Positions 4,741 to 56,359 of a stretch of DNA of 64,000 nt are shown here, piece after piece. Numbering within the stretch: position 1 is the first letter of the stretch; every line of letters begins with the position of its first letter. A program made the translations under genes and the position numbers. This DNA comes from Bacilli bacterium (lineage in GTDB: Bacteria > Bacillota_I > Bacilli_A > RF39 > UBA660), in the NCBI GenBank assembly GCA_017484205.1, contig JAFUTO010000002.1, positions 16,334-80,333 on the forward strand, written 5' to 3'. The notes under the pieces were generated by a model, which searched no databases, was not told where the DNA came from, and saw only the letters and a program-made list of their open reading frames with translations.

Positions 4741-4753
4741 AAAAGGTGAAAAT

Positions 4754-8157: not shown

Positions 8158-8166
8158 GGTGATTAT

Positions 8167-40400: not shown

Positions 40401-43400
40401 TTGTAAATATAGTTGTTACAGCAGAAAATGGTAACAGAAATACTTATACTATTACTGTAACTAAAGAGGGTAGTGAAATTAATACACTTAAATCTTTAGA
40501 AACTAATAGAGGTGATTTAACACCTACATTTAATCCAAATACAAATAATTATACAATCACAGTACCAAATGATATTACTGATATTACTGTAGCAGGCGAA
40601 ATGACTGATATATTAAGTAAAGTAACAGGTTTTGGTACATATAGATTGACTACAGGAGAAAACATTATAGCTATAACAGTAACATCTGAAACAGGTGTTC
40701 CAAATACATATACTATAACTGTATTTAGAGAATATAATAGTAATCATTATTTAGCTAGTTTGACAGTTAATAATGGTACATTAACACCTGATTTTGATAA
40801 AGAAACATCTGAATATAGAGTTAATGTTTCTAATGATGTAGAAAATATCGTTATAACTGGTATTCCAGAAGTTTCTACTACTACCGTAACAGGTAATGGT
40901 ACAAAAACTTTAGTACCAGGTGAAAATGAATTTATAATAACAGCAACTGCTGAGGATGGTTCTTCTAAAGAATACAAAGTTATAGTTACAAGGGATAAGA
41001 GTAGTAATGCTAATCTAGATAGTTTAACTATCCAAGAATCAAGAATTAATCCTACATTTAATCCTATGATAACTTCATATACAGCAAAAGTATTATATGA
41101 TATTGAAGATGTTCATGTCATAGCAATACCATCAGATCCTGAGGCAACTGTAAGTGTAGTAGGAAACACTAACCTAAGTGTTGGTGACAACACAGTAACA
41201 GTTACAGTAACTGCGCCAGATGGTACTGAAAAAGAATATGAAATAACTGTAAAAAGATTATCAGAAGAAGAAAGTCCAGACTTATATTTAGCTAGTCTAA
41301 CTGTTTCTAGTTGTACAATAGATTTCAATAAAAAGACATATTATTATGAATGTGTTTTGAATAATGAAATTAGTGAAGTAGAAATTGAAGCTACTCCAGA
41401 AGATTTAGGTGATACTGTTTTAGGAACAGGTACACTTAACCTTTCTGTAGGTGATAATATAAGACAAGTAGTAGTTAAAAACGGCGGATTTGAAAGAGTT
41501 TATACAATCAAAGTTACAAGGTTAAAGAGTACTGAATCTAGACTTAAAGATTTGATTGTTAAAGATCATACATTAGATCCAGAGTTTAATTCAGATACTC
41601 TTACATATAACCTTACAACTAAAGAGTATGAACTAGAATTTGAATTCGTTAAATTACATGATGGTGAAACTATTGAAGTAATTGGTAATGATAATTTAGC
41701 ATTAGGAAATAATGTTATTACTATTAGAGTTACATCAGAAGATGGGGCACATCAAACAGAATATGTATTAAACGTAGAAAGAACTGTAAGAGATGATAAT
41801 TACTTATCTAATTTATGGGTAGAAGATGAGACTATTTCTCCTGAATTTAATAAGTTAGTTAATAATTATAAGGTATTTGTACCTTATGAAACAACTAGTG
41901 TTATCATAGGTGCAGAAGCAGAAGATAGAAATGCAACTGTAGAAGGAACTGGTATGAAAATGGTAATACCTGGTCCTAATACATTTACAGTTCGTGTAAA
42001 AGCTGAAGATAATTCAGTACGTGAATATCGTATTACTGTGACACGTGCAGCTTCTCCAAATAACTATTTAGAGTCATTAACAATTGATGGAGAGGTATAT
42101 ACTCCAGAATTCAATAGAGAAACCCTTACATATACATTAACAGTTCCATATGAGACTGATACATTAAATATTGAAGCAATTCCTGAAGATGAGGAAGCTA
42201 CTGTCTTAGGTGATGGAGTTGTATCATTAAAACAGGGTGTTAACAATATTGAAATATATGTTACTGCTCCTAATGGAAATGTTAGAACGTATGTGGTAAA
42301 AGTCACAAGAAAAGATCCAATTACTGCAAAATTATTAAATATTGAAGTTGAAAATTATACATTGGAACCTGAATTTAAACCAGATGATCAATTGTATCAA
42401 GTTACAGTCGATTATGAAACAACTAAGTTAAACTTCATAATTACTAAGATGGATCCATATTCAACTTACGAAATAGTTGGTAATAGAAACTTTAAAATTG
42501 GATTAAATGATGTATATATTAATGTTACGGCAAGTAACAGAGTAGATACATTCCAATACCATGTAGTTGTTAATAGACAAGCTTATTCAAATACATTCTT
42601 AAGTTATTTAACAGTAAATCAAGGTGAATTATCACCTGAGTTTGAAAAAACAACTCTTACTTATAATGTTGAGGTACCAAATAATGTTGCAAGTATTACA
42701 TTAGACGGTGCGCCTGATTACCCATTATCAACGGTAACAGGATTAGGGGACTATACACTTAATGTAGGTGTAAATACTATTAAAGTAGTTGTTACATCAC
42801 CATCTGGAATTAAACGTACTTATACAGTTAACGTTAATAGAAGAAAGAGTAGTAATGCTAATCTAGAATCTATTAAATCTAATATAGGTACATTAACTAA
42901 AGATGATGAGTATACATATACATTAGTAGTACCAAAATATACTACAAATATTGGTAGAGCTAATTTCACTGTGACAACTGAAGATCCACAAGCTACTGTA
43001 TCTATGCCAGTTACAATAGATTTAACTCAAACAACGGCATATCCTATTAGAGTTACTAGTCCAGACGGAACTAGAACTAAGGAATATACAGTAAATGTTG
43101 AATTTGATTTATCACATGATGCAACTTTAGCTTCATTAATACCAAGCGTTGGTGAATTAAATCCTAAATTTGATCCTAAAACTAATAATTATCGTATTGA
43201 TCTATTTGATGATGAAGAAGAAGAATACTTTGATTTATATCTAAATGAAGTAGAAGCTACATTATTAAATAGAAGTCTTACATATCAATTAACAGAATTA
43301 GAAACTACAGCTGAAATAATGATTCAAGCTGAAGATGGAACTATTAATACTTATACTATTTTGATTGCCAAATCAAAAACTAAGGAAAAATATTTAGATA

Positions 43401-46400
43401 ACATTGTAATAACAGGTGTTACTGAAGTTGATCCAAGTATTGTATTACCATCATTCAGATCAAAAACATTTGATTATACATTAGATGTTCCTTATGAAGT
43501 TGCTAAAATTGGATTTGATATTACTAAACGTCATCCATCTCAACAAATAAAGATTTACAATAATGATGTATTACAATCTGGTGATAGTTATGCTTTAACT
43601 GTTGGAGTTAATAACTTCAGAATTGAGGTAACTAATTCATTAGGTGAAGTAACTAACTATAATTATGTAATTACAAGAGCTACAAGTACAAATGCTAACT
43701 TGAAGGTATTAGGTTTAACTGATCCTGAGATAGTATTTGAAGGTTTCAATAAAGATCTTTTAGAGTATGATGCTCAAGTTCCATATGAGTATGAAAACGT
43801 TGTTATTAATGCGATTCCAGAAGAAGAAGGAGCTAGAGTTACTATTAATGGTGCAACTTACTTAGTTGCTGATGAAGAACGTACAGTAACTATTAAAGTA
43901 ACCGCACCTGATGGTAAGACAACAAAGACTTATAAGATCAATATTTTAAGAGAACCTGAAGTTAACAACTTACTTAAAACATTAACGTTATCTTCTGGTA
44001 GAATTCAAACATTAAATCCTAAATTTAGACCAGGTCATAATGACTATACATTAACTGTTTCTAGTACAACGGCAAATCTACAAGTAGATGCATTGCCTCA
44101 ACTTGAAACTACAGTGGTAACTGGTGATTTAGGACTTGTCCCAGTAGCAACAGGTGAAAATGTTATTAAGATATATTCAACTGCTACTTATGAAGGTAAA
44201 GAATATACTAGAACTTATACAATTAATGTTACTAGATCATCTGCTGATAATGCTTTATTAGAATCATTAGAAGTATTTAATGGTACAATGGTTGAACCTT
44301 TCGATAAGACTCGTGAAAACTATACTATTAATGTTGAAAATGATGTCACATCCCTAGATTTAAAATATAAACCTGAAGATGAAGCTGCAACTGTAACTAT
44401 TACAGGTAATGAAAATTTAGGATATGGTAATGAAAATTTAGTTACTATCAAAGTTAGATCTGCAAATGGTAATGTAGTTAAGAATTACTTCTTACATGTT
44501 GTTGTAAAAGGTGAATCTAACCCTTACTTAAAAGATTTACAAATAGATGGTGTTACCGTTGATAAATTTGATAAATATATTGAAGAATATAATATTACAG
44601 TTGAAAATGCTGTTAATGATATTGATGTTTTAGGTATTCCTGAAAGTGATAATTCAACAGTAATAAGTGGTAATGGTATGCATGCTCTTACTATTGGAGA
44701 AAATTCATTTGACATTACTGTTGAGGCTCAAGATGGTGAAACTAGAAAAACTTATACTATCAATGTAACAAGAGAAGAAAATGCTTATTTGATGGGTATT
44801 GTTACTGATAGGGGTGGAGCAATTACTGATTTTGATAAATCTACATATGAATATGAACTTACAGTAGAAAATGATATAGAAGATATTACTATTATAGGTT
44901 GGGCAAGTGATATGAACGCTGAAGTTACTGGTAATGGTAAATATTTACTAGATGTTGGTGACAATCCAATCTACTTAACAGTTAAAAATGGTACAACTAG
45001 AAAAGTTTATACTGTAAACGTAAAACGTAAAGGTTCATCAAATACTAATCTTCTATATTTAACAAGTACAGATGGTGACTTAGATCCGTTATTTAGTAAT
45101 GACATTGATAACTATGAGATGCATTTACCAAATTATAAGACTAAATTAGCTTTAGCTTATGCTCCTGAGCATAATGCAACTGTACAAGTAATAAATAATA
45201 ATTTAAGTGGCACAGAATCTACAGTACAATTATTAGTTACTGCAGAAGATGGAACTACAAGAACTATTAATATTAAAGTTTATTTAGAGGATGGTGGTTA
45301 CTTCAATAGTAGATTAGCATCATTATCAGTAGCGGAAGGAGCAATATCTCCAAAATTTGATCCGGACACTCATAGTTATACATTAACAGTTAATCAAGAT
45401 GTTGAAAAAATCCATATTACAGCAGTTCCTGAAGAAACAAATTCAGTAGTAACTGGTGATGGAGAAGTTGAAATTGAATTAGGTAGAAACGAACAACATG
45501 TTGTGGTTACTGCAGAAGACGGAACTACAACTACATACACATTAATAGTATTTAGAAAGGATATGGATAATGCTGATTTAACTGGACTTTATACTGATAT
45601 CGGTGAATTAAATCCAGAATTCAATCCTAAAATTTATGAATATGAGATTGATGTTCCTGAGGAAACAAGAAAAGTTCATTTAACAGCTGTTGCTTATTCT
45701 GAAAAAACTATTGAAGGTGATGGAGATGTGTACTTACAAAAAGGTACTACTATTAGAAATATTATTGTTACATCTGAATCTGGTATATCAAATACTTATG
45801 TAGTTAAGATTAATCGTGCTTTATCAACAAATCATGATATAATTAATATTACAGAAAGTACTGGCGAGATGTCACCTATATTTAATCAGTCTACATTAGA
45901 TTATGGTTTCAAAGTAGGGGATGTTAAACCTAACTTAGATAAAACTTATGTTGTTACAAATCATGTTGAATTTGATGTTACGACATATAGTGAGCTTGCT
46001 GAAGTTATATACGAAAAAGAAGTTACAAGTACAGATGAAGATGGTAATGAAGTAGTAGAGAGAGTTACATTACCTAACAACGATGTTAGTCTAGATTATG
46101 GTAATAATAAGATAATTATTTATGCTATGTCAGAAGATGGTAATACATCAGATGAATATGTATTTAATATTTATAGAATCCATGATTTAACTAATATTAC
46201 AGTACCTGGTGATGCAACTGGACCTAATATGGAAGATGGTTCACCTAACCATATAAGTGTTCAACCTGGTGGAACATTCGATTTGCTTGCTGAAATCGGA
46301 TATACTCCAGAAGATGCTGATTTTAAAGATTTAATCTTTAAATCAAATAATACATCATTTGTAACTGTAGATGCTAATGGTATTATTACAGCAGCTGATG

Positions 46401-46930
46401 TACTTGATAAATCTACGACAATAACTGTTACAAGTAAATATTATCCTAATATTGTTAAGACAGTTAATGTTACAGTAGAAATTACATTAATTACATCAGA
46501 AGTACACGATATTCAAAGAGAATCAACTAAATATGATCCATATATTACATTTATTGAATTAAAAACATCAATTCAAGATTTCTTAGATAACCTTGATAAT
46601 GATAATAGATTCTTACATGTATATGGATTAGATGGTGTTGAAATTAAAGATTATACTAAGTTCGTAGGAACTGGTATGAAGGTTACATTAGAAAATAATG
46701 GACACACTTATGATTCACTTGATATTGTTGTAAAAGGTGATATAGATGGCGATGGATATAGTATCGCAAATGATATAGCTAAAATTAAATCTCACATATT
46801 GAAAAAATCAACACTTGAAGGAGTTGAATTCCTTGCTGCTGATATAGATGATGATGGCTATGTTGTTGCGAATGACCAAGCAAAGGTTAAGAGCTATGTT
46901 TTAAAACGTATATCATCATATATAAATTAA
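25481..46930 (+). CDS. Giant (7149 aa) secreted dockerin-bearing surface protein: nine glycine-rich domains + >40 cadherin-like beta-sandwich domains + Big_2-like domain + C-terminal type-I dockerin
   Basis: Signal peptide; nine ~350-aa Gly-rich units (ELWGAxGG ... GGGATDVRL ... SRIMVAGGGGG ... GGGGGYYGG ... GGSSYISGY ... C..GTTDI.CSYHYSGY ... GNGYAKI), each followed by two cadherin-like domains (NxYL..L......L.P.F.....Y.V ...TYT(I/V).V.R); ~25 tandem cadherin-like domains at 39300-46200; Big_2-like (FVTVDANGIITAADV..KSTTITVTS); dockerin GDIDGDGYSIANDIAKIKSHIL.../ADIDDDGYVVANDQAKVKSYVL; one uninterrupted ORF. Confidence 0.8.
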   Translation: MKKYRGFLYVFLLLAMLMVPFNVAESNIQNKVLADEIIDSSKLSSLVVTGFENNLDPEFNSETTTYNLSLPSSIIDLDIETETISSGAEVSVSGNLYLKNNTGSITITVTNPNATAPTTYTINYTKESSSDTTEYTFTSTKDVQTFTTTKTGLYKFELWGAQGGHLRNTYNNGGGYTKGEIYLSSGTELYVYVGEAGAISTTGTFNGGGAGGIGSTNGFSGGGATDVRLIKGTNWNDADSLASRIMVAGGGGGASGNSNYDTAGGKSAAGGLISYTGGYYTEHQSEYVVDDVTYYIYGGAANQTSGGAGGINHYSATGDNESGSFGIGGNSNSTSGSRGSGGGGGGYYGGGAGGGTGESGYGQGGGGGTSYISGHAGSIAITAVDDLTPRNDSNNNICTDGTTDVKCSYHYSGYKFTNTVMIDGKGYNWTTEIGEQVGTPKTTGTGTYNGNRDDGYAKITLLSTTSDDNYLTNITSSDGTFTQTFDPLTSTYTLTLSAYTAKFTLDGTTSDPYASVQGFGEYSINLGETKRIDILVTSTSGNTKIYKVIATRSESELTTSSTKLKSLTFGGGTYTLDFEPLKYEYEIDVPLNTIDLSVEAVTFDEGASTKVSGNEYMKNSTGTIKVVVSKDGLEDTTYKIKYNKTLPDPDLSDLTQTFSYTGNYQTFTAPYSTEYRIELWGAEGGCYENNGCGQEGAYVAGTITLSRGTRLYVYVGQGLASINNAAFNATTSSTGGGNPGGGATDVRLIPGTWNDTYSLNSRIMVAGGGGSGQDGDWGGAAGGLIGYSSSRSGYTNTGGTQTGPGVGQENPTGCATGSFGIGSTCGATGGGGYYGGGGASHIYGSGSGGSSYISGHTGAVAITSEVDRTPKDGCTTGTTDIECSYHYSGYTFTDTTMIDGLGYNWTNEVGEYVGMPTWNGESTMTGNTGHGYAKIAVVSLSDDNYLTDISTNIGTWDKTFNPTTYVYNISLDKYEQKVTVSGVTSDKNAVISNLGEYKIKAGETKVVNLLVTAPSGKIKTYTLNITREALVEGEHNSKLAELEIEGIKLDPIFTSLTTEYNIMFSKNIYDLNITATPYDSDATVTITGDKYITDDYNAITIKVDAPSVESTTYKIYYTKLDYGTVMYEYGYTGEYETFVAPYYANYKIELWGAKGSYSSGNNGAYTSGNIYLTSGTTLYVYVGNKTDGMAGGWNGGGNAIRSDGFGGGGATDVRLTPTSSLTTWNEINSLTSRIMVAAGGGGAISWAGGAQGGYGGALVGGSGANRVSGGSANTPATGGTQTTGGTTVRNGSGAMYSTSNVGGFGYGASVTNGSGTNYGGGAGGGGYWGGASGNDYSGSLNSGAGGSSYISGYLGSVAVKSNTNYLPRLDSLGNICANGTTDIVCSYHYSGYVFTDGEMIAGNALMPNYTGTDRMTGNASNGFAKISIVDVESQNDYLDDLIFKKLDYSDDYLVDLGFEPTKNNYTVTLDEYTRAFELSGELGDENARVTGLGTYTIEPGESKDINIIVTAVDGNSRTYKVTVNRKTMEDHTALLKNLQVDKYNLNEAFYSKKYDYTVNIYDVEIDLVINASTFDSDAVVTVSGNTYINSNTGVVTVRVKHVGLEDEVYTITYTKVTPSMDNVTFNYTGEYQTWTAPFSAKYKIEAWGAAGGGGAINNHTSASSGGLGGYAEATFKILEGTNLYIYAGGKGSYGSGSSSYGGAVGGWNGGGNGGNSGSGSGGGATDVRMTPTSAKNVWNELNSLYSRIIVAGGAGGTDDSGGTYNGSNDGSGGSGSGLNGMGAWIDGTYYASYGGTQSNGYALGEGGSATTNTDTGGAGGGYYGGTVTNHSNGGAGAGSSYIKGYPGADTTYISYQDGAEYMEGSFKEAQNSGNGYVTISMLGIISDNIYLTDLTVTTDLITDSLIEETFDPQSGKYTAYLDKYSELFYVKGTLSDSNSKVTGLGEYRIEPGETKDIEVTVTAESGKTKTYTITVSRDDFEDGEHSTKLKSLYEETYSLRENFYSEKYDYRVNVYGNEIDTVWHYTTYDPEAQVTIEGDKYLKGHNVITFTVTLPEEYGVDPTVYEVVFTKVVTTEPSKNDYLKELKSSAGTLSPEYDVLNQTYKVTLSSTETGTRLTGKLDEGNAYATGLDKFYTVEPGQTRNVEIIVTSDYGTTRTYTVEIERASYDDSVASTKLKSLVISEYETDIDFQSEVYEYDIVLPKGEIDLTINAIPYDSDAIVAIQNDKHLVADEGTVTITVTKAGVEDTVYKINYTKYDEYSEDFDYTGEYQTFVAPYTGKYTFELWGAQGGTGYYSTQPTPGLGAYTKGTITLEKGTTLYIYVGGKGGNSANGSSIPTGGYNGGGNGTTDDSRGDSGGAGGGASDIRYYINTTGVWNNSKSLATRIMVAGGGGGSHSTNTTNNTEAMNAGALEVTGQISTWTTGWTPIVNQTTGNAFGYGITGESYIYCHAMAGGGGGYYGGVNFVDSSNCSGRASGGSSYISGYLGSVAITSINDTTPRLDSNEEQCISGTEDIECSYHYSGYIFTDTVMKSGNAEQPTHDGTSTQTGNSGNGYAKVSMELSQDAYLNNLETDYGVWNVNFNPLQLDYDLHLSEYEAYVNLTGELSNPNATVTGLDRMYELALGETKIVPVVVTAPNGDTKTYTITMHRDDYTDEHSSKLSLLNVIKYEEGYLDPKFTPINNNYTISIDSSEAEIYIDYETFDPTATVTVTGTGRIIGESGVIKVKVSASGVEDTTYTISYVLESIPEGTEFTFPFTGDVQEFIVPTTGYYQLEVWGAQGGGRDTTTFNNGQLGYGGAGGYSTGTIKLYKDQVLYVYVGGRGTPSNSGLAAGGFNGGGSSWASDSGDPAAGGGGATDIRTGLNDLYTRFIVAGGGGGGGEDAETGGIGGGINGGNGGSDCYGTQTTGRCGAIFGTGASTPYDGGGGGGGWYGGGTAGGSQTIPTGNSGSDTSGGSGGSGFVLTSETVSNTPNGYKLGEEWYLEDAKTVAGNGVMPTTDHFTIMYGKGGDGYAVITLLEKVSRDNYLVDLKSDYGTLTPTFGSDIENYTLSLDAYTPNFTLSGKASNAKATVTGFDTYSIEPGETKVINIVVTSTSGDTRTYKVTATRDNFTDTHSSLLSSLKINDGLEYELKPIFNSKVYEYNIKVYYNLADLDIVTDVYDDDAKVTITGNKHLSDSGVITITVNCEVAGETVYKINYTRDKSLEGYIPTDKDVVNTYDYTGNYQTFIAPDNGDYIIELWGAQGNYANRGRSYGGAGAYTYGIINLQKDQKLYVYVGENRTDRNASWNAGTTGGSGNDTANGGSTNGYGGGGATDIRLTPGSWNDLASLKSRIMVAAGGGGGSDYAYPANGGAAGALVGFDGANGKYPNVGIPNVPPTGATQTSGGKTSVISASGGTGANGGFGTGGNGNGDWGSGGGGGYFNGGGGGYTSNSVDSGAGGSSYISGYTGSIAIASADVTTPRNDQAGALCANGTTDITCSYHYSGKIFTNTVMLSGEDVIPSKTGTGTSVGNTGSGYAKIIQILKDEDNYLETLTSTYGTFDKTYDPLVTEYTLTLDQYDTSFTLEGTLSNDDATVTGLGYYEIEVGETKEIQIVVTAESGDTKTYTVTAIRNPFTDSHSTKLKSLRLLDNEGIASPYGLNEEFNSLKYNYTANLYYNVIDLTVNAVPYDPAATVEILDNLYLIDDDGRITVKVTAPDTDPTYYYIDYHKDEDVDVEDEYDYDYTGQYQTFIAPYTGKYLFQAWGAEGGTNGGKGAYTDGVIALDRDQLIYIYVGGRGATGCITATGGGWNGGGNPSATGCSSSGGGATDFRLIKASETKTVWNEITSLRSRIMVAAGAGAGESSVGGAGGTINGTTAYNGTYATQTSGSAFGYCPQPTYDASAGGGGYWGGTWPGRDAYHGGGGSSYISGYLGTVAVISKDDTSPRLDKNGNACTNESALNDITCSYHYSGLTFENSQMIAGNAIMPTIDGTDTMTGKSGNGYAKITPLFYSRDYYLTNITATSELGNTMFPVFDPLTDTYSVTIDKYDEWVTIDAELSDPTNSVVAGTGEYRLENPGDEKTVELVVTAQSGETKTYTVYVRRNEFDTHTTKLKDLDIIGSEDLIDPRFHSLNYEYDIILSSGVIDASIGYAKYDSEAIVTITTLEEKNKVVGDDIYYLKDDEGTIIITVTLPDEYVDPNNEDTQPTTYIIRYNKNLATGNDYSYTGKYQTWVAPTTGYYKFELWGASGGSAFGTYASSNVNYGGYTSGTMNLPSGTTLYVYVGSAGQGVGSGYAYGGWNGGGNNYTSCNTSTAGGGASDIRVVNTSELTIWNEFDSLKSRIMVAGAAGGRGGFGVGGSAGGLESYSGTYNSTGNGHRHSNQSAATQTSGGKSDNHSNAYGEGWPINTDGSFGYGGTGSGGGCMGSGGGGGYYGGAGAYNSGAGSGGSSYISGHNGSNSVAEESTVDNIIHTGSSEHYSGYVFTDTVMIDGQGYNWTNVKEEQVEMPNPSGGTYALGRGQDGNGYARITPLDEDNYLLSLTVTIDKKFKTDDFDNVEGAKFTPTFDKFTNTYTLELPDHVTDLTIGARPSSDTATIEGIGNHEVLAGENIYEVVVTAESGEERVYTIKVTRPASKESRALDISVTGFVETLCKPFESQGYCKLTPASYDPDNTDYYLKVPSGIRDLEWTATKMHEYQKITGAGITRLGPWLNLITIEVQAESCAYLSEGETCEDITDYTYHVTRDMTGDNYIDELIIYDPDIDIGFDYLLSEYSFRVENQYTELGMTVVLDDPNASYEIIGNENFEVGSNIVEIIVTAENGEKRTYVLNVYRLANSNKLLSELHVKNSGNEYTLTPPFEDIITSYALDVPNEIDNIDITATAAYNKTSISGTGNHTLKTGLNEIHVVTTAENGETETYTIVVNRAKSDNAYLKSLSAAEGNFNETYVKTNNNYTMTVNPYVKKLDITAIVEEENATYKITGNDNFKIGPNVVNIVVTAENGNRNTYTITVTKEGSEINTLKSLETNRGDLTPTFNPNTNNYTITVPNDITDITVAGEMTDILSKVTGFGTYRLTTGENIIAITVTSETGVPNTYTITVFREYNSNHYLASLTVNNGTLTPDFDKETSEYRVNVSNDVENIVITGIPEVSTTTVTGNGTKTLVPGENEFIITATAEDGSSKEYKVIVTRDKSSNANLDSLTIQESRINPTFNPMITSYTAKVLYDIEDVHVIAIPSDPEATVSVVGNTNLSVGDNTVTVTVTAPDGTEKEYEITVKRLSEEESPDLYLASLTVSSCTIDFNKKTYYYECVLNNEISEVEIEATPEDLGDTVLGTGTLNLSVGDNIRQVVVKNGGFERVYTIKVTRLKSTESRLKDLIVKDHTLDPEFNSDTLTYNLTTKEYELEFEFVKLHDGETIEVIGNDNLALGNNVITIRVTSEDGAHQTEYVLNVERTVRDDNYLSNLWVEDETISPEFNKLVNNYKVFVPYETTSVIIGAEAEDRNATVEGTGMKMVIPGPNTFTVRVKAEDNSVREYRITVTRAASPNNYLESLTIDGEVYTPEFNRETLTYTLTVPYETDTLNIEAIPEDEEATVLGDGVVSLKQGVNNIEIYVTAPNGNVRTYVVKVTRKDPITAKLLNIEVENYTLEPEFKPDDQLYQVTVDYETTKLNFIITKMDPYSTYEIVGNRNFKIGLNDVYINVTASNRVDTFQYHVVVNRQAYSNTFLSYLTVNQGELSPEFEKTTLTYNVEVPNNVASITLDGAPDYPLSTVTGLGDYTLNVGVNTIKVVVTSPSGIKRTYTVNVNRRKSSNANLESIKSNIGTLTKDDEYTYTLVVPKYTTNIGRANFTVTTEDPQATVSMPVTIDLTQTTAYPIRVTSPDGTRTKEYTVNVEFDLSHDATLASLIPSVGELNPKFDPKTNNYRIDLFDDEEEEYFDLYLNEVEATLLNRSLTYQLTELETTAEIMIQAEDGTINTYTILIAKSKTKEKYLDNIVITGVTEVDPSIVLPSFRSKTFDYTLDVPYEVAKIGFDITKRHPSQQIKIYNNDVLQSGDSYALTVGVNNFRIEVTNSLGEVTNYNYVITRATSTNANLKVLGLTDPEIVFEGFNKDLLEYDAQVPYEYENVVINAIPEEEGARVTINGATYLVADEERTVTIKVTAPDGKTTKTYKINILREPEVNNLLKTLTLSSGRIQTLNPKFRPGHNDYTLTVSSTTANLQVDALPQLETTVVTGDLGLVPVATGENVIKIYSTATYEGKEYTRTYTINVTRSSADNALLESLEVFNGTMVEPFDKTRENYTINVENDVTSLDLKYKPEDEAATVTITGNENLGYGNENLVTIKVRSANGNVVKNYFLHVVVKGESNPYLKDLQIDGVTVDKFDKYIEEYNITVENAVNDIDVLGIPESDNSTVISGNGMHALTIGENSFDITVEAQDGETRKTYTINVTREENAYLMGIVTDRGGAITDFDKSTYEYELTVENDIEDITIIGWASDMNAEVTGNGKYLLDVGDNPIYLTVKNGTTRKVYTVNVKRKGSSNTNLLYLTSTDGDLDPLFSNDIDNYEMHLPNYKTKLALAYAPEHNATVQVINNNLSGTESTVQLLVTAEDGTTRTINIKVYLEDGGYFNSRLASLSVAEGAISPKFDPDTHSYTLTVNQDVEKIHITAVPEETNSVVTGDGEVEIELGRNEQHVVVTAEDGTTTTYTLIVFRKDMDNADLTGLYTDIGELNPEFNPKIYEYEIDVPEETRKVHLTAVAYSEKTIEGDGDVYLQKGTTIRNIIVTSESGISNTYVVKINRALSTNHDIINITESTGEMSPIFNQSTLDYGFKVGDVKPNLDKTYVVTNHVEFDVTTYSELAEVIYEKEVTSTDEDGNEVVERVTLPNNDVSLDYGNNKIIIYAMSEDGNTSDEYVFNIYRIHDLTNITVPGDATGPNMEDGSPNHISVQPGGTFDLLAEIGYTPEDADFKDLIFKSNNTSFVTVDANGIITAADVLDKSTTITVTSKYYPNIVKTVNVTVEITLITSEVHDIQRESTKYDPYITFIELKTSIQDFLDNLDNDNRFLHVYGLDGVEIKDYTKFVGTGMKVTLENNGHTYDSLDIVVKGDIDGDGYSIANDIAKIKSHILKKSTLEGVEFLAADIDDDGYVVANDQAKVKSYVLKRISSYIN
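25900..46200 (+). repeat. Intragenic tandem domain repeats (nine ~1.4-1.9 kb Gly-rich units, then a ~265-bp-period cadherin-like array)
   Basis: Recurring nucleotide blocks such as ggtggagctactga(c/t)gttcgttta at 26145, 27702, 29103, 30645...; tggggtgc (ELWGA) at 25956, 27518, 28930, 30418, 32338, 33810, 35203, 36714, 38160. Confidence 0.8.
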
Positions 46931-46960
46931 GATATCACAAAAGTGATATCTTTTTTATTG
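46931..46960 (+). terminator. Rho-independent terminator of the giant gene
   Basis: gatatcac-aaaa-gtgatatc perfect hairpin followed by tttttt. Confidence 0.8.
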
Positions 46961-47023: not shown

Positions 47024-47052
47024 TTGTAAATGTAAAGTGAATATGCTATAAT
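47024..47052 (+). promoter_or_regulatory. Promoter TTGTAA, 17-nt spacer, TGcTATAAT
   Basis: -35 at 47024-47029, extended -10 at 47044-47052; RBS gggagag upstream of the ATG at 47074. Confidence 0.5.
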
Positions 47053-47073: not shown

Positions 47074-50000
47074 ATGAAGATGCAAAGTAGTAAGTTTAAA
47101 GGAATTTTGTTATTTTTAGTAAGTTTTATGGTATTTACAATTGTACCAACGGTTGCTAAAGCTGCAACATACAATTTTAGTTTTAGCGCATACAATTGTG
47201 GTAATAGTACATATACAGAGGATGATATAATTGATAATTGTATTCTAGAATATTATGATGGCAATTTAGCAAAGCTAAATGATGGAGTCGTTGTAGATAC
47301 AGATAAATACATCATGCTAGTTTTGGAATACGAGTATACTAGCGGTACGGGTGCAGCAGTTTTATCAGTTGATACTTCATATGATAATACTTTTGTTGAA
47401 AATTTATCATTCACTCAAACAGCTATTGATGCGGATAACCCAATTTTTACAAGATCAATTGCTAGAAAATGGAATTCTTCAACAAGTGATACTGGTAGTT
47501 TAGTTGTATTAGCTTATGATTCAGACGATGAAACTTTGACTTATGATCCAGGTGCGATTGGATTTATGTTCTTCAAAGTAAAGGACACCGCACCAGCTGG
47601 TCAAACTTTTACGTTTGCTATATCTGATGATCCTGATGATACTCGTGTCAGTGATTCCACAGGTAATATACATATCGATTGGGCAGCTTCTCCAATATCT
47701 TTCAAGGTTGCTGGATCTGCAACTTCGACTGATACTTCTTTAAAAACTTTAAATGCTAAAGGAAGTAATGCAACTGATTATTCAATTTATATGGATAATG
47801 GTTATACAACTGAATTTAGTGCAGGAACATCAAATAGAACGTTCTATGCAGTAGTTCCATATGATGTTACTTCAATTACTTTAAATGGTGAAGTAACAGA
47901 TTCTGCTGCTCAATTTATTCCAGGAAATGGTACTACTTATAGTAGAAATCATAATTTAGATGTAGGAAATAATGAAATAACATTTAGAGTTACCGCACAA
48001 AGTGGTACTACTGAGGATTATTATATTAATGTCTATAGATTAAGTAATGATGCATCATTACAGACATTAACTACTTCAGGTAATGTTACATTGAATGGTT
48101 TTGCTTCAAATGTATATAGTTATGATATTTCAACTACTTATGCAACTGTTACAACAAATGTAACATCAAAACCTACTCATGAAAATGCTTTTGTTACAAA
48201 TAGTGAAGATGTATTATGGGATAAAAATACAAGTTCAGGTAGTTATACTCAAACTTTTGCTTTACCAGGTTTTGGTACTGATGTTAATACCAAAGTTGTC
48301 AAGGTACAAGCAGAAGATTGTTTAAGTGAATATGCAAGTGTTCCAGGTAATACTTGTCATACACAAGATTATACAATTAATGTTAGTAGATTAAATCCAT
48401 CTACAGATGCAACTTTAAAAGCATTAGCTGTTGATGGAACTTCAATATTTGTAGAAGGTACTACAGATTATGATCAAGGTTCACAACCATATTCTAAATC
48501 ATCAGCTGATATAACTGCTACAGCTAACGATTCAAAAGCTACAGTAGTTGCTTCAACTGTTGGAAATAAAACATTAAATGTTGGCGATAATACTATTACA
48601 GTTACGGTAGAAGCAGAGGATTGTAAGGTAATTACTGGTTCTAATCCAAGTGGTAGTTGTCATACACAAGATTATACAATTAAATTCTATAGAAGAAGTA
48701 ACAATGCTAATTTAAATACATTAGTTGTTACTGGAACAGGTGTATCTATGAATCCTGCATTTACGGATCATAGTTATGTTGGACCATATACTGTAAGTTA
48801 TCCATCAGGAGCAACATCTGTTAATGTCAAAGCAAGTGTTGAAGAAGAACATGCCACAATTAATATTACAGGTATCGAAGATGGTATTGACTATTCCAAT
48901 TTAAGTAATCAATTAAGCATAATTGTTACTGCAGAAGATGGTAATACTAAAACTTATGTATTAAGATTTAGTAAAGTATTATCTAGAGAGTCTAGACTTG
49001 ATAGTTTAACTGTTAGCGGTGTATCATTATCTCCATCACCATTTGATCCAGATACATATACATATTCTGGTAGTGTAGATGGTAATGTTGAAAAAGTAAC
49101 TATTGGTGCAACATTAAAAGATGCTGATAAATCAACATTTATGGAAGGCTATGGACCTAGAGAAGTTGAATTAAATTATGGTGATAATACATTCTATGTT
49201 AGAGTACAAGGTGAAGCAGATGATGCCACTAGTTCATATAATGTCACAATAACAAGAAATGAAAAAACAATTAAAACATTAAAAGAAATTTCAATTGATA
49301 GTGTACCTATTGATCCATTTGATCCAGACACAATTACTTATACTGTAGATCCAGTCGATTATTCAACAACTTCAGTTACAGTTAAAGCAGTTGTTACAGA
49401 AGGCAGTGATGCTACATATACAGTATTAAATCAATCAGGTGGTGTAGCCGTAGGTGGTGTTATTAACTTAAATACAGGTGATAATACTGTTACAATAAGA
49501 GTTAGAGCTCAAGATGGTTCTACTGGTGATTATACAGTAACTATACCAAGAGAAAAGAATAATGTTGCTACTGTAGATAGTGTAACCGTATTTGGTAATG
49601 CTGCTACATGTGATAACGATACAAGAAAATGTACTATTACAGTAACAAATGATCATTCATCAATCGCACCTACAGATGTGGTTGTAATTCCAACTGATTC
49701 TAGTGCTACAGTAACTAAACCTACAGATACAAGAAATTTAGTAGTATCTACTCCAAGTAATCCAAGAACTAATACTTATATCTTCAGTGTTAAAGCAGAA
49801 GATGGTGTTACTACAAAGGAATATGAATTAATTATTACAAGAGAAGCATCAGATGATGTATCTTTGAAAGAAGTATCAGTATTTACAAATGAAGGTCAAA
49901 CTTATAGATGTACAACATTTACTGGATTTGCATGTACAATTTCAGTACCAAGTACAACTACAGGTTATACACTTTCAGCTACACCTAATTCAGGCGCAGC

Positions 50001-53000
50001 AACTGTAGATGGTACAGGTTCATTTACTATGGATGGTGCATCTGATAGTAGTCAAATTAAGGTATTAACAGTAACAGCAGAAGATGAACATAGTCAAGTA
50101 TATCAAATTAAAATTGAAAGAAGTAAATCTACCAACGCTAATTTAAAGACTATTACTATTGATGGTGTAGAAATAGATGGCTTTGATGGAGTTAATAAAC
50201 AAAATTATACTGTTACTGTTCCTGGTACTACTGAAGCAATTACATTAGGCGCTGAAGTAGATGATACAGGAAAAGCAACTATCGAAAATAGTGATACTAT
50301 TTTAGGTAGAAAAGATCTTGTTTATGGATCAGAAGGAAATGTTTATACATTAAAAGTTATTGCTGAAGCTGGCGAAGGTTCTGTTAAAACATATACAGTT
50401 ACAGTAATAAGAAGTAATAATATAGATTCTACATTATCTATGATTCAAATAGGTGGTAGTAATTTAAATGGTTTTGCATCTAACACATATGCATATAACT
50501 ATAATGATACATATTATCAAGATTTAGGTAACGAAAACCAATTAGTAGTACCTTATAATAAAACTAGCATTACTTTGTTAGGTGTTCCTACAGATACCAC
50601 TTATGGAACAGTTAAATATAATGGTACTGCATCAACTGAAGCAACAACTATAAACTTAACAACAGGTGTTAATACTATTACTGTAACGGGTGTTGCGCAT
50701 GATACAAGTAAAACAACAGATTATGTATTAAAAGTATTTAGAACATTGAATTCAAATAATTCAATTACTAAATTAGAGGTTGCTGGTGTAGAAGCTACAT
50801 GGGATGATGAAAACAACAAATATACAGTTACTGTTCCAAATAGTGTTGATAGTGTTGGAACATTAAATGTTAATGTCACATTACCTGCAAAACAAGTAGC
50901 TACAGACCCTGATGCAACTGTAACGATACCAACTATGTCATTAACAACAGATAACGTTAATAATTATCAAATTATTGTTACATCAGAAGCTGGTGAAGCA
51001 AAAACATATCCAGTTGAAATAACAAGAGCAAAATCAACTGTAAAAACATTAACTGCATTAGCTGTAACAAATGGTGCGTTCAGTCCGTCATTTACTCCAA
51101 ACACTAATGAATATACAGTTATTGTACCTGCTTCAACTACTGAATTTACAGTAAGTTATACTAAAGCAGATCCTAAAGAAACTGTAACTGGTGCTAGAAG
51201 ATATGACATGACTTCAAGCAATATGGATGTTATAGTTGAAGTTCAAGCTGAAGATCCAGAAGAACCAGTTAATAGATATACATTACATATTGAAAGAACT
51301 GAGTCAGCAGTTAATACTTTAAGTAGTATTGTTGTTAATTCAGGAGAGACTATTTATGCTTTAAATCCATTATTTAGTCCAGATAAAACTTCATATGTAG
51401 TAGAAGTACCTGGTACTGTATCACAAGTTAATATTACAGCTACACCTACAGACAGTAGATCTACTGTAACAGGTGATGGTGTTAAAACAGTAAGTAGGGG
51501 TGATAATACATTTACTATTACATCTACTTCTGAAACAAATACATTTATTAATTATACTGTTAATGTTAAAGTATTAGATAAAACAATAAATACATTAAAT
51601 AATATAACAGTAACTTTGGATGATGGAACAGTTTTACCATTAAGTCCTAATTTTGCATCTGATATTCAAAATTATACAATTGCTGATCAACCATATAGTG
51701 TTACTACAGTAAATATCGGTGTAGAAAGAACTGATAGTGATTCAACAGTTAAAATTGGTAATGTTGATTATACAATGACTGATGAAACTAATGGTATTAC
51801 AGTACCACAAAGTCTAAACGCTGGTGCGAACACAATAAAAGTTGTTGTTACAGCACAGGATGGAACTTCTAGTACATATAATATCCGTATTAGAAGAGAA
51901 GAAAACGATGATGCTACTTTAAGGACATTAAATGTTTCAGGTGGATCTTTATCACCTACATTTGCTCCTGAAATTACATCATATTCAGTAGAATTAGATA
52001 GTGATGTAACTACATTATCTCCATCAGAAGTAACTGCAATAGCTACTGATTCAAATGCAACAGTAACAAAAGATCCAACAGTTACAATAAGTGATGATGG
52101 AACTACTATATATGATATCTTAGTAACAGCTCAAAATGGTACAACAAAAACATATTCAATAACTGTATCTAGAAAGAAAAGTGCTGATGCTAAGTTGAAG
52201 AGAGTAGATTTGACTGGCGCTTCTATTAGTCCATCATTTACTCCAAACAATGATCAATATACATTAAATATTTCTTCAACATCAACAGAGTTTACAATTC
52301 AAGGTATTCCTAATCATGATAATGCTACTGTGTCATATAATGGTGTAGGATCAACAGAAGGTATTACATATCCTGCTTCAACTGATACTGTTTCTATTAC
52401 AGTAACAGCAGAAGATGGAAGTACAACAAAGACGTATACATTTAATGTTGTAACTGCTACTGCAAGAGACGCTACATTAGCTGACTTGGAAGTATTAGGA
52501 TATACTTTAGATCCTGAATTTGATACAACTACTGTTGTATATGATATTGGTGAAGTTGAGTTTGGAACAGATAGTTTAACTATTATTGCGACTCCTACAA
52601 ATACTAATGCTACAGTTAATTATTATGTAGATGGTGTTAAGCAAGATGATAATGTCGTTGATTTACCACAAGCATTAGGTAGTAAGAGTATTACAATTGA
52701 AGTTGTACCTGCTACAGGTTCAAAAGCGCAAGCTAAGTATTATTCTGTTAATTATGACATGGTTACATCTAGAAATAATTATTTAGCTACATTAATACCA
52801 AGTAGTGGTACATTAAGCCCATCATTCTCAAAAGGTAGAACTGCTTATTCAATGACAGTACCTTATGATACTGAAAGCATATCATTCCAAGTAACTACTG
52901 ATAATAACCAATCATCAGTAAGTAATGATGGTACAACATTTATGTTTACAGATGCTGAACCAGCTACTTATGTATATAATGATTTGCGTGTAGGCACAAA

Positions 53001-54150
53001 TACAATGACATTTACGGTAAGAGCTGCTAATGGTGCATTAAGAGATTATGTTGTAACTGTTACAAAGACAGGTAGAACACCATCTTCAGATGTTTATTTA
53101 TCTAGTTTAAAAGTAGATAATTATGAGTTGACACCTAGTTTTGATAAAACCGAAGAGGTTTATTCAATAGGAAGTATCCCTTATAGTTTACAAACATTAA
53201 CAGTAAGGGCTACAGGTAATTATGCAGGTCAAACAATTACGTATAGTTTAAATGGAACTGATGTTACAGCAAATGATGATGGAAGTGCAACAATTAATGT
53301 TGCTGGAACTACAGGATCTAATTTGATAAATGTTCATGTTGTAGCTGAAAACGGAACATCTACAAAAAATTATCAAATATCTTATACTAAGACGCCATCA
53401 TCTAATGCTTACTTAGCTAGTATGATAGATGGATTACATAAGATTACAAATTTCAATAAAGAAACAAAAGATTATGAAATTAGTGTTGATAGTACAGTTG
53501 GTACATTAACATTAACATTAACTACTGAAGAAGAACATGCTACTATGACTATTAATGGTACTAAACGTACTCATCAATGGGCATATGAAGCTACGAACCT
53601 AAAAGGTGGAACTAATGTTGTTGTAATATTAGTAACAGCAGAAAATGGTGATACAGCAACTTATAAATTGACTATCAATAAAGAAGGTTCAAGTGAACTT
53701 ATAACTTCTGAAGAATTTGGACATATAATAGAAGATGGTTTCATAAAAACAGCAATATTAAATGAAACTATTGGTGATTTAATGTCTAATGAATTGGATA
53801 ATGATGTTGACATGTTACAAGTTTGGGATGCAGAAGAAACTGCTGAAATAAATGATACATCTACTAAAGTTGCTACTGGTCAAATAGTTAGACTAGTTGA
53901 TAGAACAACAGGTGCAGAATTGGATAGAAAAGTAGTAGTTGTTAGGGGAGATACTGATGGCAATGGTTCAATCAATGTATTAGACTCAATTCCAATTGTT
54001 AACCAATCATTAAGAAGATTAACATTAGTTGGTGCCTATGCTCAAGCAGCAGATGTTGATAAGAATGGTTCAATCAATGTATTAGACTCAATTCCAATTG
54101 TTAATCATTCATTAAGAAGAACATTTATAGATTATACTATAGGAAGTTAA
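47074..54150 (+). CDS. Putative adaptor scaffoldin (2358 aa): N-terminal cohesin-like module + ~24 cadherin-like beta-sandwich domains + C-terminal dockerin
   Basis: Signal peptide; N-terminal ~180 aa ending ...DPGAIGFMFFKVKDTAPAGQTFTFAIS, which resembles the cohesin C-terminal strands; repeated cadherin-like units; C-terminus GDTDGNGSINVLDSIPIVNQSLRR...ADVDKNGSINVLDSIPIVNHSLRR (dockerin duplicated segments). Confidence 0.7.
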   Translation: MKMQSSKFKGILLFLVSFMVFTIVPTVAKAATYNFSFSAYNCGNSTYTEDDIIDNCILEYYDGNLAKLNDGVVVDTDKYIMLVLEYEYTSGTGAAVLSVDTSYDNTFVENLSFTQTAIDADNPIFTRSIARKWNSSTSDTGSLVVLAYDSDDETLTYDPGAIGFMFFKVKDTAPAGQTFTFAISDDPDDTRVSDSTGNIHIDWAASPISFKVAGSATSTDTSLKTLNAKGSNATDYSIYMDNGYTTEFSAGTSNRTFYAVVPYDVTSITLNGEVTDSAAQFIPGNGTTYSRNHNLDVGNNEITFRVTAQSGTTEDYYINVYRLSNDASLQTLTTSGNVTLNGFASNVYSYDISTTYATVTTNVTSKPTHENAFVTNSEDVLWDKNTSSGSYTQTFALPGFGTDVNTKVVKVQAEDCLSEYASVPGNTCHTQDYTINVSRLNPSTDATLKALAVDGTSIFVEGTTDYDQGSQPYSKSSADITATANDSKATVVASTVGNKTLNVGDNTITVTVEAEDCKVITGSNPSGSCHTQDYTIKFYRRSNNANLNTLVVTGTGVSMNPAFTDHSYVGPYTVSYPSGATSVNVKASVEEEHATINITGIEDGIDYSNLSNQLSIIVTAEDGNTKTYVLRFSKVLSRESRLDSLTVSGVSLSPSPFDPDTYTYSGSVDGNVEKVTIGATLKDADKSTFMEGYGPREVELNYGDNTFYVRVQGEADDATSSYNVTITRNEKTIKTLKEISIDSVPIDPFDPDTITYTVDPVDYSTTSVTVKAVVTEGSDATYTVLNQSGGVAVGGVINLNTGDNTVTIRVRAQDGSTGDYTVTIPREKNNVATVDSVTVFGNAATCDNDTRKCTITVTNDHSSIAPTDVVVIPTDSSATVTKPTDTRNLVVSTPSNPRTNTYIFSVKAEDGVTTKEYELIITREASDDVSLKEVSVFTNEGQTYRCTTFTGFACTISVPSTTTGYTLSATPNSGAATVDGTGSFTMDGASDSSQIKVLTVTAEDEHSQVYQIKIERSKSTNANLKTITIDGVEIDGFDGVNKQNYTVTVPGTTEAITLGAEVDDTGKATIENSDTILGRKDLVYGSEGNVYTLKVIAEAGEGSVKTYTVTVIRSNNIDSTLSMIQIGGSNLNGFASNTYAYNYNDTYYQDLGNENQLVVPYNKTSITLLGVPTDTTYGTVKYNGTASTEATTINLTTGVNTITVTGVAHDTSKTTDYVLKVFRTLNSNNSITKLEVAGVEATWDDENNKYTVTVPNSVDSVGTLNVNVTLPAKQVATDPDATVTIPTMSLTTDNVNNYQIIVTSEAGEAKTYPVEITRAKSTVKTLTALAVTNGAFSPSFTPNTNEYTVIVPASTTEFTVSYTKADPKETVTGARRYDMTSSNMDVIVEVQAEDPEEPVNRYTLHIERTESAVNTLSSIVVNSGETIYALNPLFSPDKTSYVVEVPGTVSQVNITATPTDSRSTVTGDGVKTVSRGDNTFTITSTSETNTFINYTVNVKVLDKTINTLNNITVTLDDGTVLPLSPNFASDIQNYTIADQPYSVTTVNIGVERTDSDSTVKIGNVDYTMTDETNGITVPQSLNAGANTIKVVVTAQDGTSSTYNIRIRREENDDATLRTLNVSGGSLSPTFAPEITSYSVELDSDVTTLSPSEVTAIATDSNATVTKDPTVTISDDGTTIYDILVTAQNGTTKTYSITVSRKKSADAKLKRVDLTGASISPSFTPNNDQYTLNISSTSTEFTIQGIPNHDNATVSYNGVGSTEGITYPASTDTVSITVTAEDGSTTKTYTFNVVTATARDATLADLEVLGYTLDPEFDTTTVVYDIGEVEFGTDSLTIIATPTNTNATVNYYVDGVKQDDNVVDLPQALGSKSITIEVVPATGSKAQAKYYSVNYDMVTSRNNYLATLIPSSGTLSPSFSKGRTAYSMTVPYDTESISFQVTTDNNQSSVSNDGTTFMFTDAEPATYVYNDLRVGTNTMTFTVRAANGALRDYVVTVTKTGRTPSSDVYLSSLKVDNYELTPSFDKTEEVYSIGSIPYSLQTLTVRATGNYAGQTITYSLNGTDVTANDDGSATINVAGTTGSNLINVHVVAENGTSTKNYQISYTKTPSSNAYLASMIDGLHKITNFNKETKDYEISVDSTVGTLTLTLTTEEEHATMTINGTKRTHQWAYEATNLKGGTNVVVILVTAENGDTATYKLTINKEGSSELITSEEFGHIIEDGFIKTAILNETIGDLMSNELDNDVDMLQVWDAEETAEINDTSTKVATGQIVRLVDRTTGAELDRKVVVVRGDTDGNGSINVLDSIPIVNQSLRRLTLVGAYAQAADVDKNGSINVLDSIPIVNHSLRRTFIDYTIGS

Positions 54151-54166: not shown

Positions 54167-56359
54167 ATGAAAAATATGAAAAAATTAAAATCATTGGTTG
54201 CCATAGTACTAGGATTTTTCCTAGTCTATGCAACTACTGTATTTGCAGCAGGATCTGTAACTGTAGGAATGGGTGGCAATTCATCAGTTGCTGTTGGTTC
54301 TACTATTGATGTTACAATTTACCTTGATAACGTTAATGCAAGTACAGAAGGTATAATTGCTTTTCAAGGTGATATTCATTTTGATACAAATTATTTAGAA
54401 TTAGTAACAGTAACTCCTGCAAGTAGTCCTTATTCATTTGATTATGAAGTAGGTGGAACTGATGTTGTATATTTAACTGGACTTGATACTTCATTTAGAA
54501 AAGGTATCAAATCCAATACAACAATTTATACTTTCACATTTAAAGCATTAAAAAATGGTACTACAACTGTAACATTAGAAAATGTTATAGCAGGTGATCC
54601 TAGTGGTGACGTAAGTGCAAATAACTCAAGTAAAGTAATTAATATTGGTGGTAGTTCAAGTACACCAACAGTTAAAAGTAGCGATGCTGATTTAAAATCA
54701 TTAAGTGTTTCTGGTTATAATATTAGTCCTGCTTTTGATGCAGCAACAACTACTTATACACTTACTGTACCAAGTGATGCAAGCAATGTTACTATTGCAG
54801 CATTACCTTCAAGTGGTAAAGCTTCTGTTAGTGGTGTAGGTTCTAAAACTTTATCAGATGGATTAAATTCAGTAGAAATTACAGTAACAGCAGAAGATGG
54901 TACTAAAAAGACATATACAGTTAATATTACAAAAGAAGCAAGTACAGTTCCAACAACTAAGAGTAGTGATGCTACACTAAAATCATTGGAATTGGCTGGT
55001 GGATATACTGTATCACCAACATTTACTTCTGATAAAACTACATATTCATTAACTGTTCCAAATAATGTTACTTCATTAGATGTTACAGCAATTGCAAATG
55101 ATGCAAATGCTAAAGTAGAAGTAACTGGTAATACAAACTGGAAAACAGGAGTTAACCCTGTTAAAGTTACAGTAACAGCAGAAGATGGTACAACTAAAGT
55201 ATATACAGTTAACGTAACAAGAAAAGATAATACTTCAGCTGTAAGTGGAGGTACTACTCCTACTAAGAGTTCTAATAATTATTTAAAAGAATTATCTACT
55301 AAAAATGGTGATATAAGTCCAGTATTTAGTAAAACAACAAGTAATTATAGTGTTACTGTTCCATATAATGTTTCTAGATTAGACTTAAATTATTTAGTGG
55401 AAGATGAAAAATCTTCAGTTAAAATCAATGGTAATAGTGATTTTAAAGTAGAATCAGTTAACACTGTTGAAGTTGTTGTAACAGCAGAAGATGGAAGTCA
55501 AAGAACTTATACAATTAATGTTACAAGATCTTCAAAAACAGGTGAAAACTTATTAGATGATATTATTATTGGTGGTGGAAGTACAAGTTTAAATCCAAAA
55601 TTTAAACCAACAACTTATGATTATGGTATTGAATTAGATCGTAATACAACTAGTATTGATATTACACCTATAACAAGTAATCCAAATGCTAAAGTGGAAG
55701 TAACAGGTAATGAAAATTTACAAGAAGGAAATAATACTATTTTGATTAAAGTTACTGATCAAGAAGGCTTTGTTCAATATTATAAAATTAACGCTTATAA
55801 GAAAGCTACAAATGGAATTGTTCTATTTGGTATAGATTTTCCCAGGTGGATGGTTTATACGGCTATTGCGTTGGTTCCTGCCTTATTAATCCTATTAGTA
55901 CTTGCTAAAAAGAAACAAGAAAATAAGGAATTAGCACCAGCAGCTTCAACAATTGAATTCAAGCCAGAATTTAATTTCTCATCTAAAAATGGTACGGATG
56001 ATGATTATGTTGAATCAGGTGGCGTATTAAACCAAGTAGTTAAAGAAAAAGAGGAATCTCTTGAAAAAACAGCTGTTGATATTAGAGATATTCCAACTAG
56101 TGCAGTTGGTATTACTGAAGGAATATCTACTGGATTAAATAAGAGTATGATGGAAGAATATCCAAGAAAGGTTATAGAAGAAGAGCCTGAGCAAATACCT
56201 TATGATCCATATGATGATAAAGTTACAAAAGAAGAACTTATCGATGCGATTAATGAAAAAAATCCAGAAAAGTTAAAAATACTATATCAACAAGAAATGT
56301 TAAATAGAGAAAAAGAAAGAGTAAAAGAAGCTGAATATCATGAAAGACATAGAAGATAA
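54167..56359 (+). CDS. Membrane-anchored cohesin-domain protein (cohesin + five cadherin-like domains + TM helix + ~170-aa acidic cytoplasmic tail)
   Basis: 730 aa; signal peptide; cohesin-like domain (GSVTVGMGGNSSVAVGSTIDVTIYLDNV...IHFDTNYLELVTV...TIYTFTFKALKNGTTTVTLENV); TM segment WMVYTAIALVPALLILLVLA followed by KKKQENKE...; lies 16 nt downstream of the adaptor gene. Confidence 0.7.
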   Translation: MKNMKKLKSLVAIVLGFFLVYATTVFAAGSVTVGMGGNSSVAVGSTIDVTIYLDNVNASTEGIIAFQGDIHFDTNYLELVTVTPASSPYSFDYEVGGTDVVYLTGLDTSFRKGIKSNTTIYTFTFKALKNGTTTVTLENVIAGDPSGDVSANNSSKVINIGGSSSTPTVKSSDADLKSLSVSGYNISPAFDAATTTYTLTVPSDASNVTIAALPSSGKASVSGVGSKTLSDGLNSVEITVTAEDGTKKTYTVNITKEASTVPTTKSSDATLKSLELAGGYTVSPTFTSDKTTYSLTVPNNVTSLDVTAIANDANAKVEVTGNTNWKTGVNPVKVTVTAEDGTTKVYTVNVTRKDNTSAVSGGTTPTKSSNNYLKELSTKNGDISPVFSKTTSNYSVTVPYNVSRLDLNYLVEDEKSSVKINGNSDFKVESVNTVEVVVTAEDGSQRTYTINVTRSSKTGENLLDDIIIGGGSTSLNPKFKPTTYDYGIELDRNTTSIDITPITSNPNAKVEVTGNENLQEGNNTILIKVTDQEGFVQYYKINAYKKATNGIVLFGIDFPRWMVYTAIALVPALLILLVLAKKKQENKELAPAASTIEFKPEFNFSSKNGTDDDYVESGGVLNQVVKEKEESLEKTAVDIRDIPTSAVGITEGISTGLNKSMMEEYPRKVIEEEPEQIPYDPYDDKVTKEELIDAINEKNPEKLKILYQQEMLNREKERVKEAEYHERHRR

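Follow-up and report, generated by a model that had tools for sequence, protein, structure and literature searches.

The stretch of DNA analyzed here (the window, 64,000 nucleotides of contig JAFUTO010000002.1) comes from an uncultured member of the Bacillota of low GC content (25-37%). It encodes, with an open reading frame running exactly from 47074 to 54150 (+), a secreted protein of 2358 aa, hereafter the target. Judged from sequence profiles and a structural model, the N-terminal domain of this protein (the head) is a new, highly divergent, and fast-evolving cohesin-type module. The other end of the protein is a dockerin. We read the target as a dockerin-anchored stalk whose distal cohesin would capture a dockerin, most plausibly that of a 7149-aa giant surface protein encoded directly upstream, which would make it a non-cellulosomal one-cohesin adaptor. 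We give this reading, drawn from sequence comparisons and modeling, slightly less than an even chance of being right.

In the mechanism that we propose, the secreted fibre of ~2330 aa would consist of a stalk of 20 cadherin-like repeats that parts two interaction modules. At the C-terminal end, an X-like module and the dockerin would plug non-covalently into the N-terminal cohesin of a membrane anchor encoded at 54167..56359, and the 4 repeats, transmembrane (TM) helix, and conserved cytoplasmic tail of this anchor would hold the fibre on the cell. At the distal end, the very divergent, fast-evolving, and acidic cohesin-type head most likely captures a dockerin, like other cohesins do. Its best candidate ligand in this genome would be the divergent dockerin of the giant, a step that we infer. 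The one-cohesin adaptor would then extend a membrane-anchored chain from the anchor to the stalk and on to the giant.

The head covers aa 30-222 of the target (47161..47739 (+), ~190 aa) and includes the stretch DPGAIGFMFFKVKDTAPAGQTFTFAISDDPDD, also quoted as GFMFFKVKDTAPAGQTFTF. A preliminary description of this locus, made from the sequence alone, had proposed that the N-terminal module is cohesin-like. It had compared it with motifs of three membrane proteins, and these motifs are indeed found there (YTFKAISSG, YKFKSLKTG, and FTFKALKNG, in the proteins starting at 4754, 8167, and 54167, respectively). Taken alone, the head of the window has no match in Pfam (even at E up to 10), NCBIfam, or the sequences of the PDB, and does not reach the gathering score of the Pfam Cohesin family (PF00963, 24.1 bits). 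BLASTP revealed no significant similarity between the head and the three membrane cohesins of the window. Neither the head nor its 4-sequence alignment retrieved any homologue in word-indexed searches, in which the anchor cohesin had one match, and a scan of the GTDB genomes with the head alignment was negative as well. Using phmmer against 1.84 billion representative proteins, we retrieved just three true homologues beyond the query, all of them N-terminal modules in proteins with the architecture of the target.

Since the head lies below the Pfam threshold, its strict membership in the cohesin family rests on evidence from fold and profile. A single-sequence AlphaFold2 (AF2) model was unusable (predicted local distance difference test, pLDDT, of 35.6); a template-free model made from four orthologues had a pLDDT of 70 and a predicted template modeling score (pTM) of 0.72. 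We used the latter, spanning aa 30-222, in a Foldseek search, a check suggested in the preliminary description. Cohesins accounted for the 25 top matches out of 25 (E down to 1.4e-6, probability 1.00), and there were no carbohydrate-binding modules (CBM) among the top fold matches. Low-confidence residues 88-128 aside, the model is a nine-stranded jelly-roll beta-sandwich and can be superposed on solved cohesins.

We also built a profile of the head family from 14 orthologous modules gathered through synteny searches. When this profile was compared with the PDB sequences (E up to 10), 15 of the 16 matches were cohesins; 3l8q came first (E 2.1e-4), with an alignment colinear from position ~45 to ~179 of the profile. 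The family is thus similar at the profile level to experimentally defined cohesins, about as much so as the accepted local membrane cohesins, the profile of which reaches a best E of 8.8e-5 against the same database. Weak but colinear Pfam Cohesin matches were found for 3 of the 14 modules (E 0.013-0.04); one of them, for instance, scores 14.6 bits and spans positions 11-129 of the 139 in the model. As the AF2 fold search and the 14-sequence profile independently return cohesins, and almost exclusively cohesins, the head is more than a chance motif, and the proposal of a cohesin-like module at the N-terminus is borne out. A further feature of the head is a helix inserted after strand 1 and ahead of strand 2, with conserved Cys residues on either side (C13 and C27 of the module). 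The modules are uniformly and strongly acidic in all species examined (net charge -17 to -26) and their identity to the module of the window is only 11-41%. Charge complementarity was not discriminating.

The dockerin claimed for the C-terminus of the target is also present. It was delimited with a local dockerin hidden Markov model (HMM) at 53941..54123 (+) (aa 2290-2350) and scores above the Pfam PF00404 gathering score (25.7 bits vs 22.9, E 1.3e-5, aa 2292-2338). Its two near-identical, canonical Ca-binding repeats, DTDGNGSINVLD and DVDKNGSINVLD (also given as DTDGNGSINVLDSIPIVNQSL and DVDKNGSINVLDSIPIVNHSL), are ~22 residues long, as in type I dockerins. It is preceded by the X-like module (53704..53940 (+), aa 2211-2289, ~75 aa), which is homologous to the module preceding the dockerin of the giant (46490..46735; BLASTP E 2e-7). 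The pairs of X-like module and dockerin of these two proteins resemble the X-dockerin dyads that serve in cellulosomes for attachment to the cell surface. The target, having at least one cohesin and at least one dockerin in the same polypeptide, has the composition of an adaptor scaffoldin, subject to the caveats on the head given below.

We think that the dockerin of the target most likely binds the downstream membrane cohesin, given the gene order and the sequence conservation. The gene encoding the target-type protein is directly followed by a membrane cohesin gene in all 11 loci that hold both (window, L003-L009, L011, L013, and L014, where the L numbers designate related loci). The related loci come from metagenome-assembled genomes of gut and rumen that are labeled Bacilli, Tenericutes, or Erysipelotrichaceae. 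In L004, the closest relative of the window, the target dockerin has 77% and the anchor cohesin 63-78% identity to the window counterpart, so that conservation is similar in the two modules. The conserved gene pairing and this matched conservation make the anchoring step likely, and this part of the preliminary description is supported by synteny.

The anchor itself (54167..56359 (+), 730 aa) is a predicted type I membrane protein whose gene begins 17 nt past the stop codon of the target. After a signal peptide comes the cohesin (54248-54658 (+); Pfam Cohesin E 1.4e-10), to which the cohesins of the proteins starting at 4754 and 8167 are homologous (BLASTP E 1e-9 and 2e-5). It is followed by 4 cadherin-like repeats (54692-55816 (+); Pfam PF12733 and repeat HMM), the TM helix (55832-55915 (+)), and the cytoplasmic tail (55916-56356 (+)), which comparison with relatives shows to be highly conserved. 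The tail motif PYDPYD..VTKDELIDAINEKNPEKLKILYQQEMLNREKE is nearly invariant in distant relatives, which hints at an intracellular partner.

The upstream giant (25481..46930 (+)) is secreted and ends in a dockerin at 46736..46909 (+) (aa 7086-7143; PF00404). In sequence terms, capture of this dockerin by the head is plausible. The recognition helices are not the same in the giant dockerin (SIANDIAKIKSHIL and VVANDQAKVKSYVL) and the target dockerin (INVLDSIPIVNQSL); the locus in the window holds two dockerin types together with one membrane cohesin and the head module. In the comparison with L004, no part of the target diverges more than the head, at 25-45% identity vs 55-80% elsewhere. The giant dockerin is ~50% identical to that of its orthologue, with flanks at 83-92%. 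Hence, the head and the giant dockerin are the fastest-diverging segments of their respective proteins. Each of the four dockerin genes of the window directly precedes a gene whose product starts in a cohesin or a cohesin-like module. Among the 10 loci with a readable upstream flank, 6 (window, L004, L005, L006/7, L008, and L011) have a gene for a dockerin-bearing cadherin-like protein as the immediate upstream neighbor. L006 (11660..12547) and L007 (11663..12550) encode, right after the anchor, a protein of 295 aa composed of a signal peptide, a cohesin, a Big_2-like region (by sequence reading), and a dockerin. We counted this compact cohesin-dockerin adaptor in favor of the capture reading. 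A mirror-tree analysis of module identities in five species was uninformative, with correlations of the giant dockerin of 0.68 with the head and 0.75 with the anchor cohesin.

Several observations weigh against capture of the giant by the head. Concerning the module, the head of the window lacks a Pfam match, and the profile of its family did not significantly detect the local cohesins, hhalign spanning 41 columns only (P 9.5e-4). The AF2 model is moderately confident, and residues 88-128, expected to contribute strands of the dockerin-binding face, have a pLDDT <50. Concerning the loci, head-bearing proteins are found with no upstream dockerin protein in L003, L013, L014, and L017, and the anchor gene is immediately followed by that of a second membrane cohesin, which could receive the giant instead, in L003, L004, L005, L008, L009, L012, L013, and L014. 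In L004, L005, L008, L013, and L014, membrane cohesins and dockerin proteins both number two, so that the role of receptor does not require the head; in L013 and L014, two head-bearing proteins are accompanied by two anchors. The giant dockerin of L004 resembles the glucosaminidase-type dockerins of the window. Finally, the genes of the giant and the target are separated by a terminator-like hairpin with a T-run, directly past the stop codon of the giant (46929..46952 (+)), and by a strong promoter-like site upstream of the target gene (47024..47052 (+); TTGTAA, 17-nt spacer, TGnTATAAT). The model of the preliminary description, in which the target links the giant to the anchor and the gene order mirrors the assembly order, is only partly upheld: the cohesin-like head and, by synteny, the anchoring are supported, whereas the link between head and giant dockerin and the mirroring of assembly by gene order are not established.

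Much of this would also suit an independent fibrillar adhesin that is anchored by its dockerin and uses the cohesin-fold head to bind something other than a dockerin, such as a surface molecule of the host, of food particles, or of other cells, with the giant forming a separate fibre on another membrane cohesin. We regard this as a real possibility, although the chances are against it. A head, a repeat stalk, and an anchor form the classic layout of fibrillar adhesins, and the target does have the stalk, with an unconventional anchor, a dockerin and not LPXTG. The hypervariability of the head between species (11-41% identity), next to a better conserved stalk, is what one expects of a tip under diversifying selection. 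The four related loci without an upstream giant, the pair of membrane cohesins after the gene in most relatives (1:1 with the dockerin proteins in the five loci listed above), and the promoter-like site proper to the target and anchor genes point in the same direction. However, the best structural and sequence matches of the head are all genuine dockerin-binding cohesins, and CBM are absent from its top fold matches. Moreover, the window has no second membrane cohesin after the anchor (the next gene there is convergent and encodes an MgsA-like AAA protein), so that the distinct dockerin of the giant would be left without a local partner, and this dockerin diverges as quickly as the head.

The head could also be a functional cohesin for a dockerin protein encoded at an unlinked place in the genome, e.g. 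a secreted enzyme. The organism has many dockerin proteins, four of them in the 64-kb window (two SagB-like glucosaminidases, the giant, and the target), head-bearing proteins lack an adjacent giant in L003, L013, L014, and L017, and the numbers of cohesins and dockerins per locus are not 1:1 in L003 and L009. Yet, no candidate can be named, and the dockerins of both glucosaminidases already adjoin a membrane cohesin, so that we find such a partner improbable. A last alternative starts from the presence of a cohesin and a dockerin within one polypeptide, the latter with two near-identical repeats: the head might bind the dockerin of another copy of the target, giving head-to-tail polymers. Such self-polymerization is very unlikely: from the window to L004 the head retains 25-45% identity and the dockerin of the same protein 77%, so the two show no covariation, and the dockerin co-varies with the anchor cohesin instead. 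Capture of a dockerin of another protein, with the giant as the foremost candidate, remains the reading that we prefer.

If the whole chain assembles in this way, uncultured Bacilli of the gut and rumen would build fibres several hundred nm long from three separately secreted proteins that are joined solely by cohesin-dockerin plugs. The first would be the TM anchor with its cohesin, the second the stalk of 20 repeats, bearing at its tip a hypervariable cohesin in co-evolution with a partner dockerin, and the third the giant, which carries that dockerin. Such a non-cellulosomal "adhesin-some" would have a previously unrecognized cohesin subfamily as its specificity-determining joint. We put this fuller picture forward tentatively, and with clearly less than even confidence. 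Cohesin-dockerin pairing is best known from cellulosomes, and here it appears to arrange adhesin-like proteins of giant size at the membrane of uncultured Bacilli with low GC from the gut and rumen. Since the head family is missed by Pfam and NCBIfam, and since a single-sequence search returned 3 homologues when synteny led to 14 members, censuses of cohesins in non-cellulolytic bacteria may undercount such modules. Binding of the giant dockerin by the head would represent a modular, non-covalent route to very long surface fibres and would offer new orthogonal cohesin-dockerin pairs for protein engineering. Should the head be a plain tip adhesin, it would exemplify the recruitment of the cohesin fold to another ligand.

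The remaining features of the target and of the loci can be described briefly. The target starts with a signal peptide (aa 1-29, 47074..47160 (+)) with a predicted cut after AKA, between ...TVAKA and ATYNF, and its N-terminus is conserved among orthologues. Its stalk of 20 tandem cadherin-like beta-sandwich repeats extends over 47755..53703 (+) (aa 228-2210) and was identified with Pfam PF12733 (E 4e-129) and an iterated repeat HMM. In the giant, the translation and the Pfam matches (PF12810, PF12733, PF02368, and PF00404) reveal ~9 ALK/LTK-type glycine-rich domains (PF12810), 45 cadherin-like repeats, Big_2, the X-like module, and the C-terminal dockerin. The glycine-rich domains were counted by reading the translation and by motif, the repeats with the iterated repeat HMM, and the Pfam scan covered aa 1-1500 and 5174-7149. 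The glycine-rich domains alternate with cadherin-like repeats.

Elsewhere in the window, two paralogous gene pairs (2374..6160 and 6268..9543) each consist of a dockerin-bearing SagB-like glucosaminidase followed by a TM-anchored cohesin protein. The latter is made of a cohesin, one cadherin-like repeat, an unknown domain, and a TM helix. This arrangement suggests that wall-active enzymes are tethered to the membrane by cohesin-dockerin pairing. In the related loci, the second membrane cohesin has ~510-560 aa (L003 15535..17070, L004 14565..15770, L005 12078..13631, L008 9022..10650, L013 12204..13889, and L014 12217..13902). In L013 (1148..21007) and L014 (1150..21047), the genes of two head-bearing stalk proteins that end in a dockerin (2913 and 2363 aa) lie on either side of two genes for membrane cohesins; the dockerins of each pair are near-identical and the heads very different. 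Three loci encode, near the anchor, secreted proteins of ~240 aa with one Pfam-type cohesin, a low-complexity tail, and no TM helix (L003 17239..17973, L009 12630..13340, and L015 2648..3415). Following the contig further yielded short contigs only, on which there were no additional cohesin or dockerin genes.

In contrast to a cellulosome, which carries glycoside hydrolases (GH) or CBM for plant polysaccharides, this system has no GH or CBM detected by Pfam in the target, the anchor, or aa 1-1500 and 5174-7149 of the giant. The target and the anchor hold only cadherin-like repeats, cohesin, and dockerin, and the scanned ends of the giant only glycine-rich, cadherin-like, Big_2, and dockerin domains; the other dockerin proteins of the window are the SagB-like glucosaminidases. 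Our literature searches found no description of this cohesin-dockerin fibre system. Functionally, the closest systems are one-cohesin adaptors such as ScaC of Ruminococcus flavefaciens, and CttA, anchored by its X-dockerin, with ScaE; the cohesins of these systems figure among the fold matches of the head. ScaC, to which other one-cohesin adaptor scaffoldins such as ScaH are similar, is cellulosomal and recruits enzymes, and it is small, whereas the two modules of the target are parted by 20 cadherin-like repeats. The candidate cargo of the target is a giant adhesin-like protein, its anchor is a TM protein and not a scaffoldin anchored by sortase or by S-layer homology domains, and its head lies below the Pfam Cohesin threshold. 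CttA is a non-enzymatic, substrate-binding surface protein of R. flavefaciens tethered by a C-terminal X-module and dockerin to the cell-bound cohesin of ScaE. This recalls the X-like module that precedes the dockerins here, and ScaE (PDB 2zf9) is among the fold matches of the head. However, CttA has neither a cohesin of its own nor a repeat stalk of such length, and ScaE is anchored to the cell wall by sortase and not by a TM helix.

The best profile matches of the head family are cohesins of Acetivibrio cellulolyticus ScaA and ScaB (PDB 3l8q and 5nrk, E 2.1e-4 and 4.6e-3), which belong to multi-tier cohesin-dockerin systems. These are multi-cohesin cellulosomal scaffoldins, with an identity to the head of only 13-19%, and the head adds an N-terminal helix and the Cys pair. 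The C-terminal domains of Antigen I/II and the pilin domains of Gram-positive bacteria ranked below all top cohesins among the fold matches and had no sequence matches with the head profile; such proteins are anchored covalently by sortase and often have isopeptide bonds. A last comparison is with NagJ, NagH, and NanJ of Clostridium perfringens. Their cohesin-dockerin pairs have Pfam-recognized modules and join secreted glycosidase toxins together, with no membrane-anchored fibre. Nevertheless, they too assemble large secreted proteins outside cellulose degradation, and cohesins of this species (PDB 2vo8, 2w1n, 2jh2, and 2o4e) are among the fold matches of the head.

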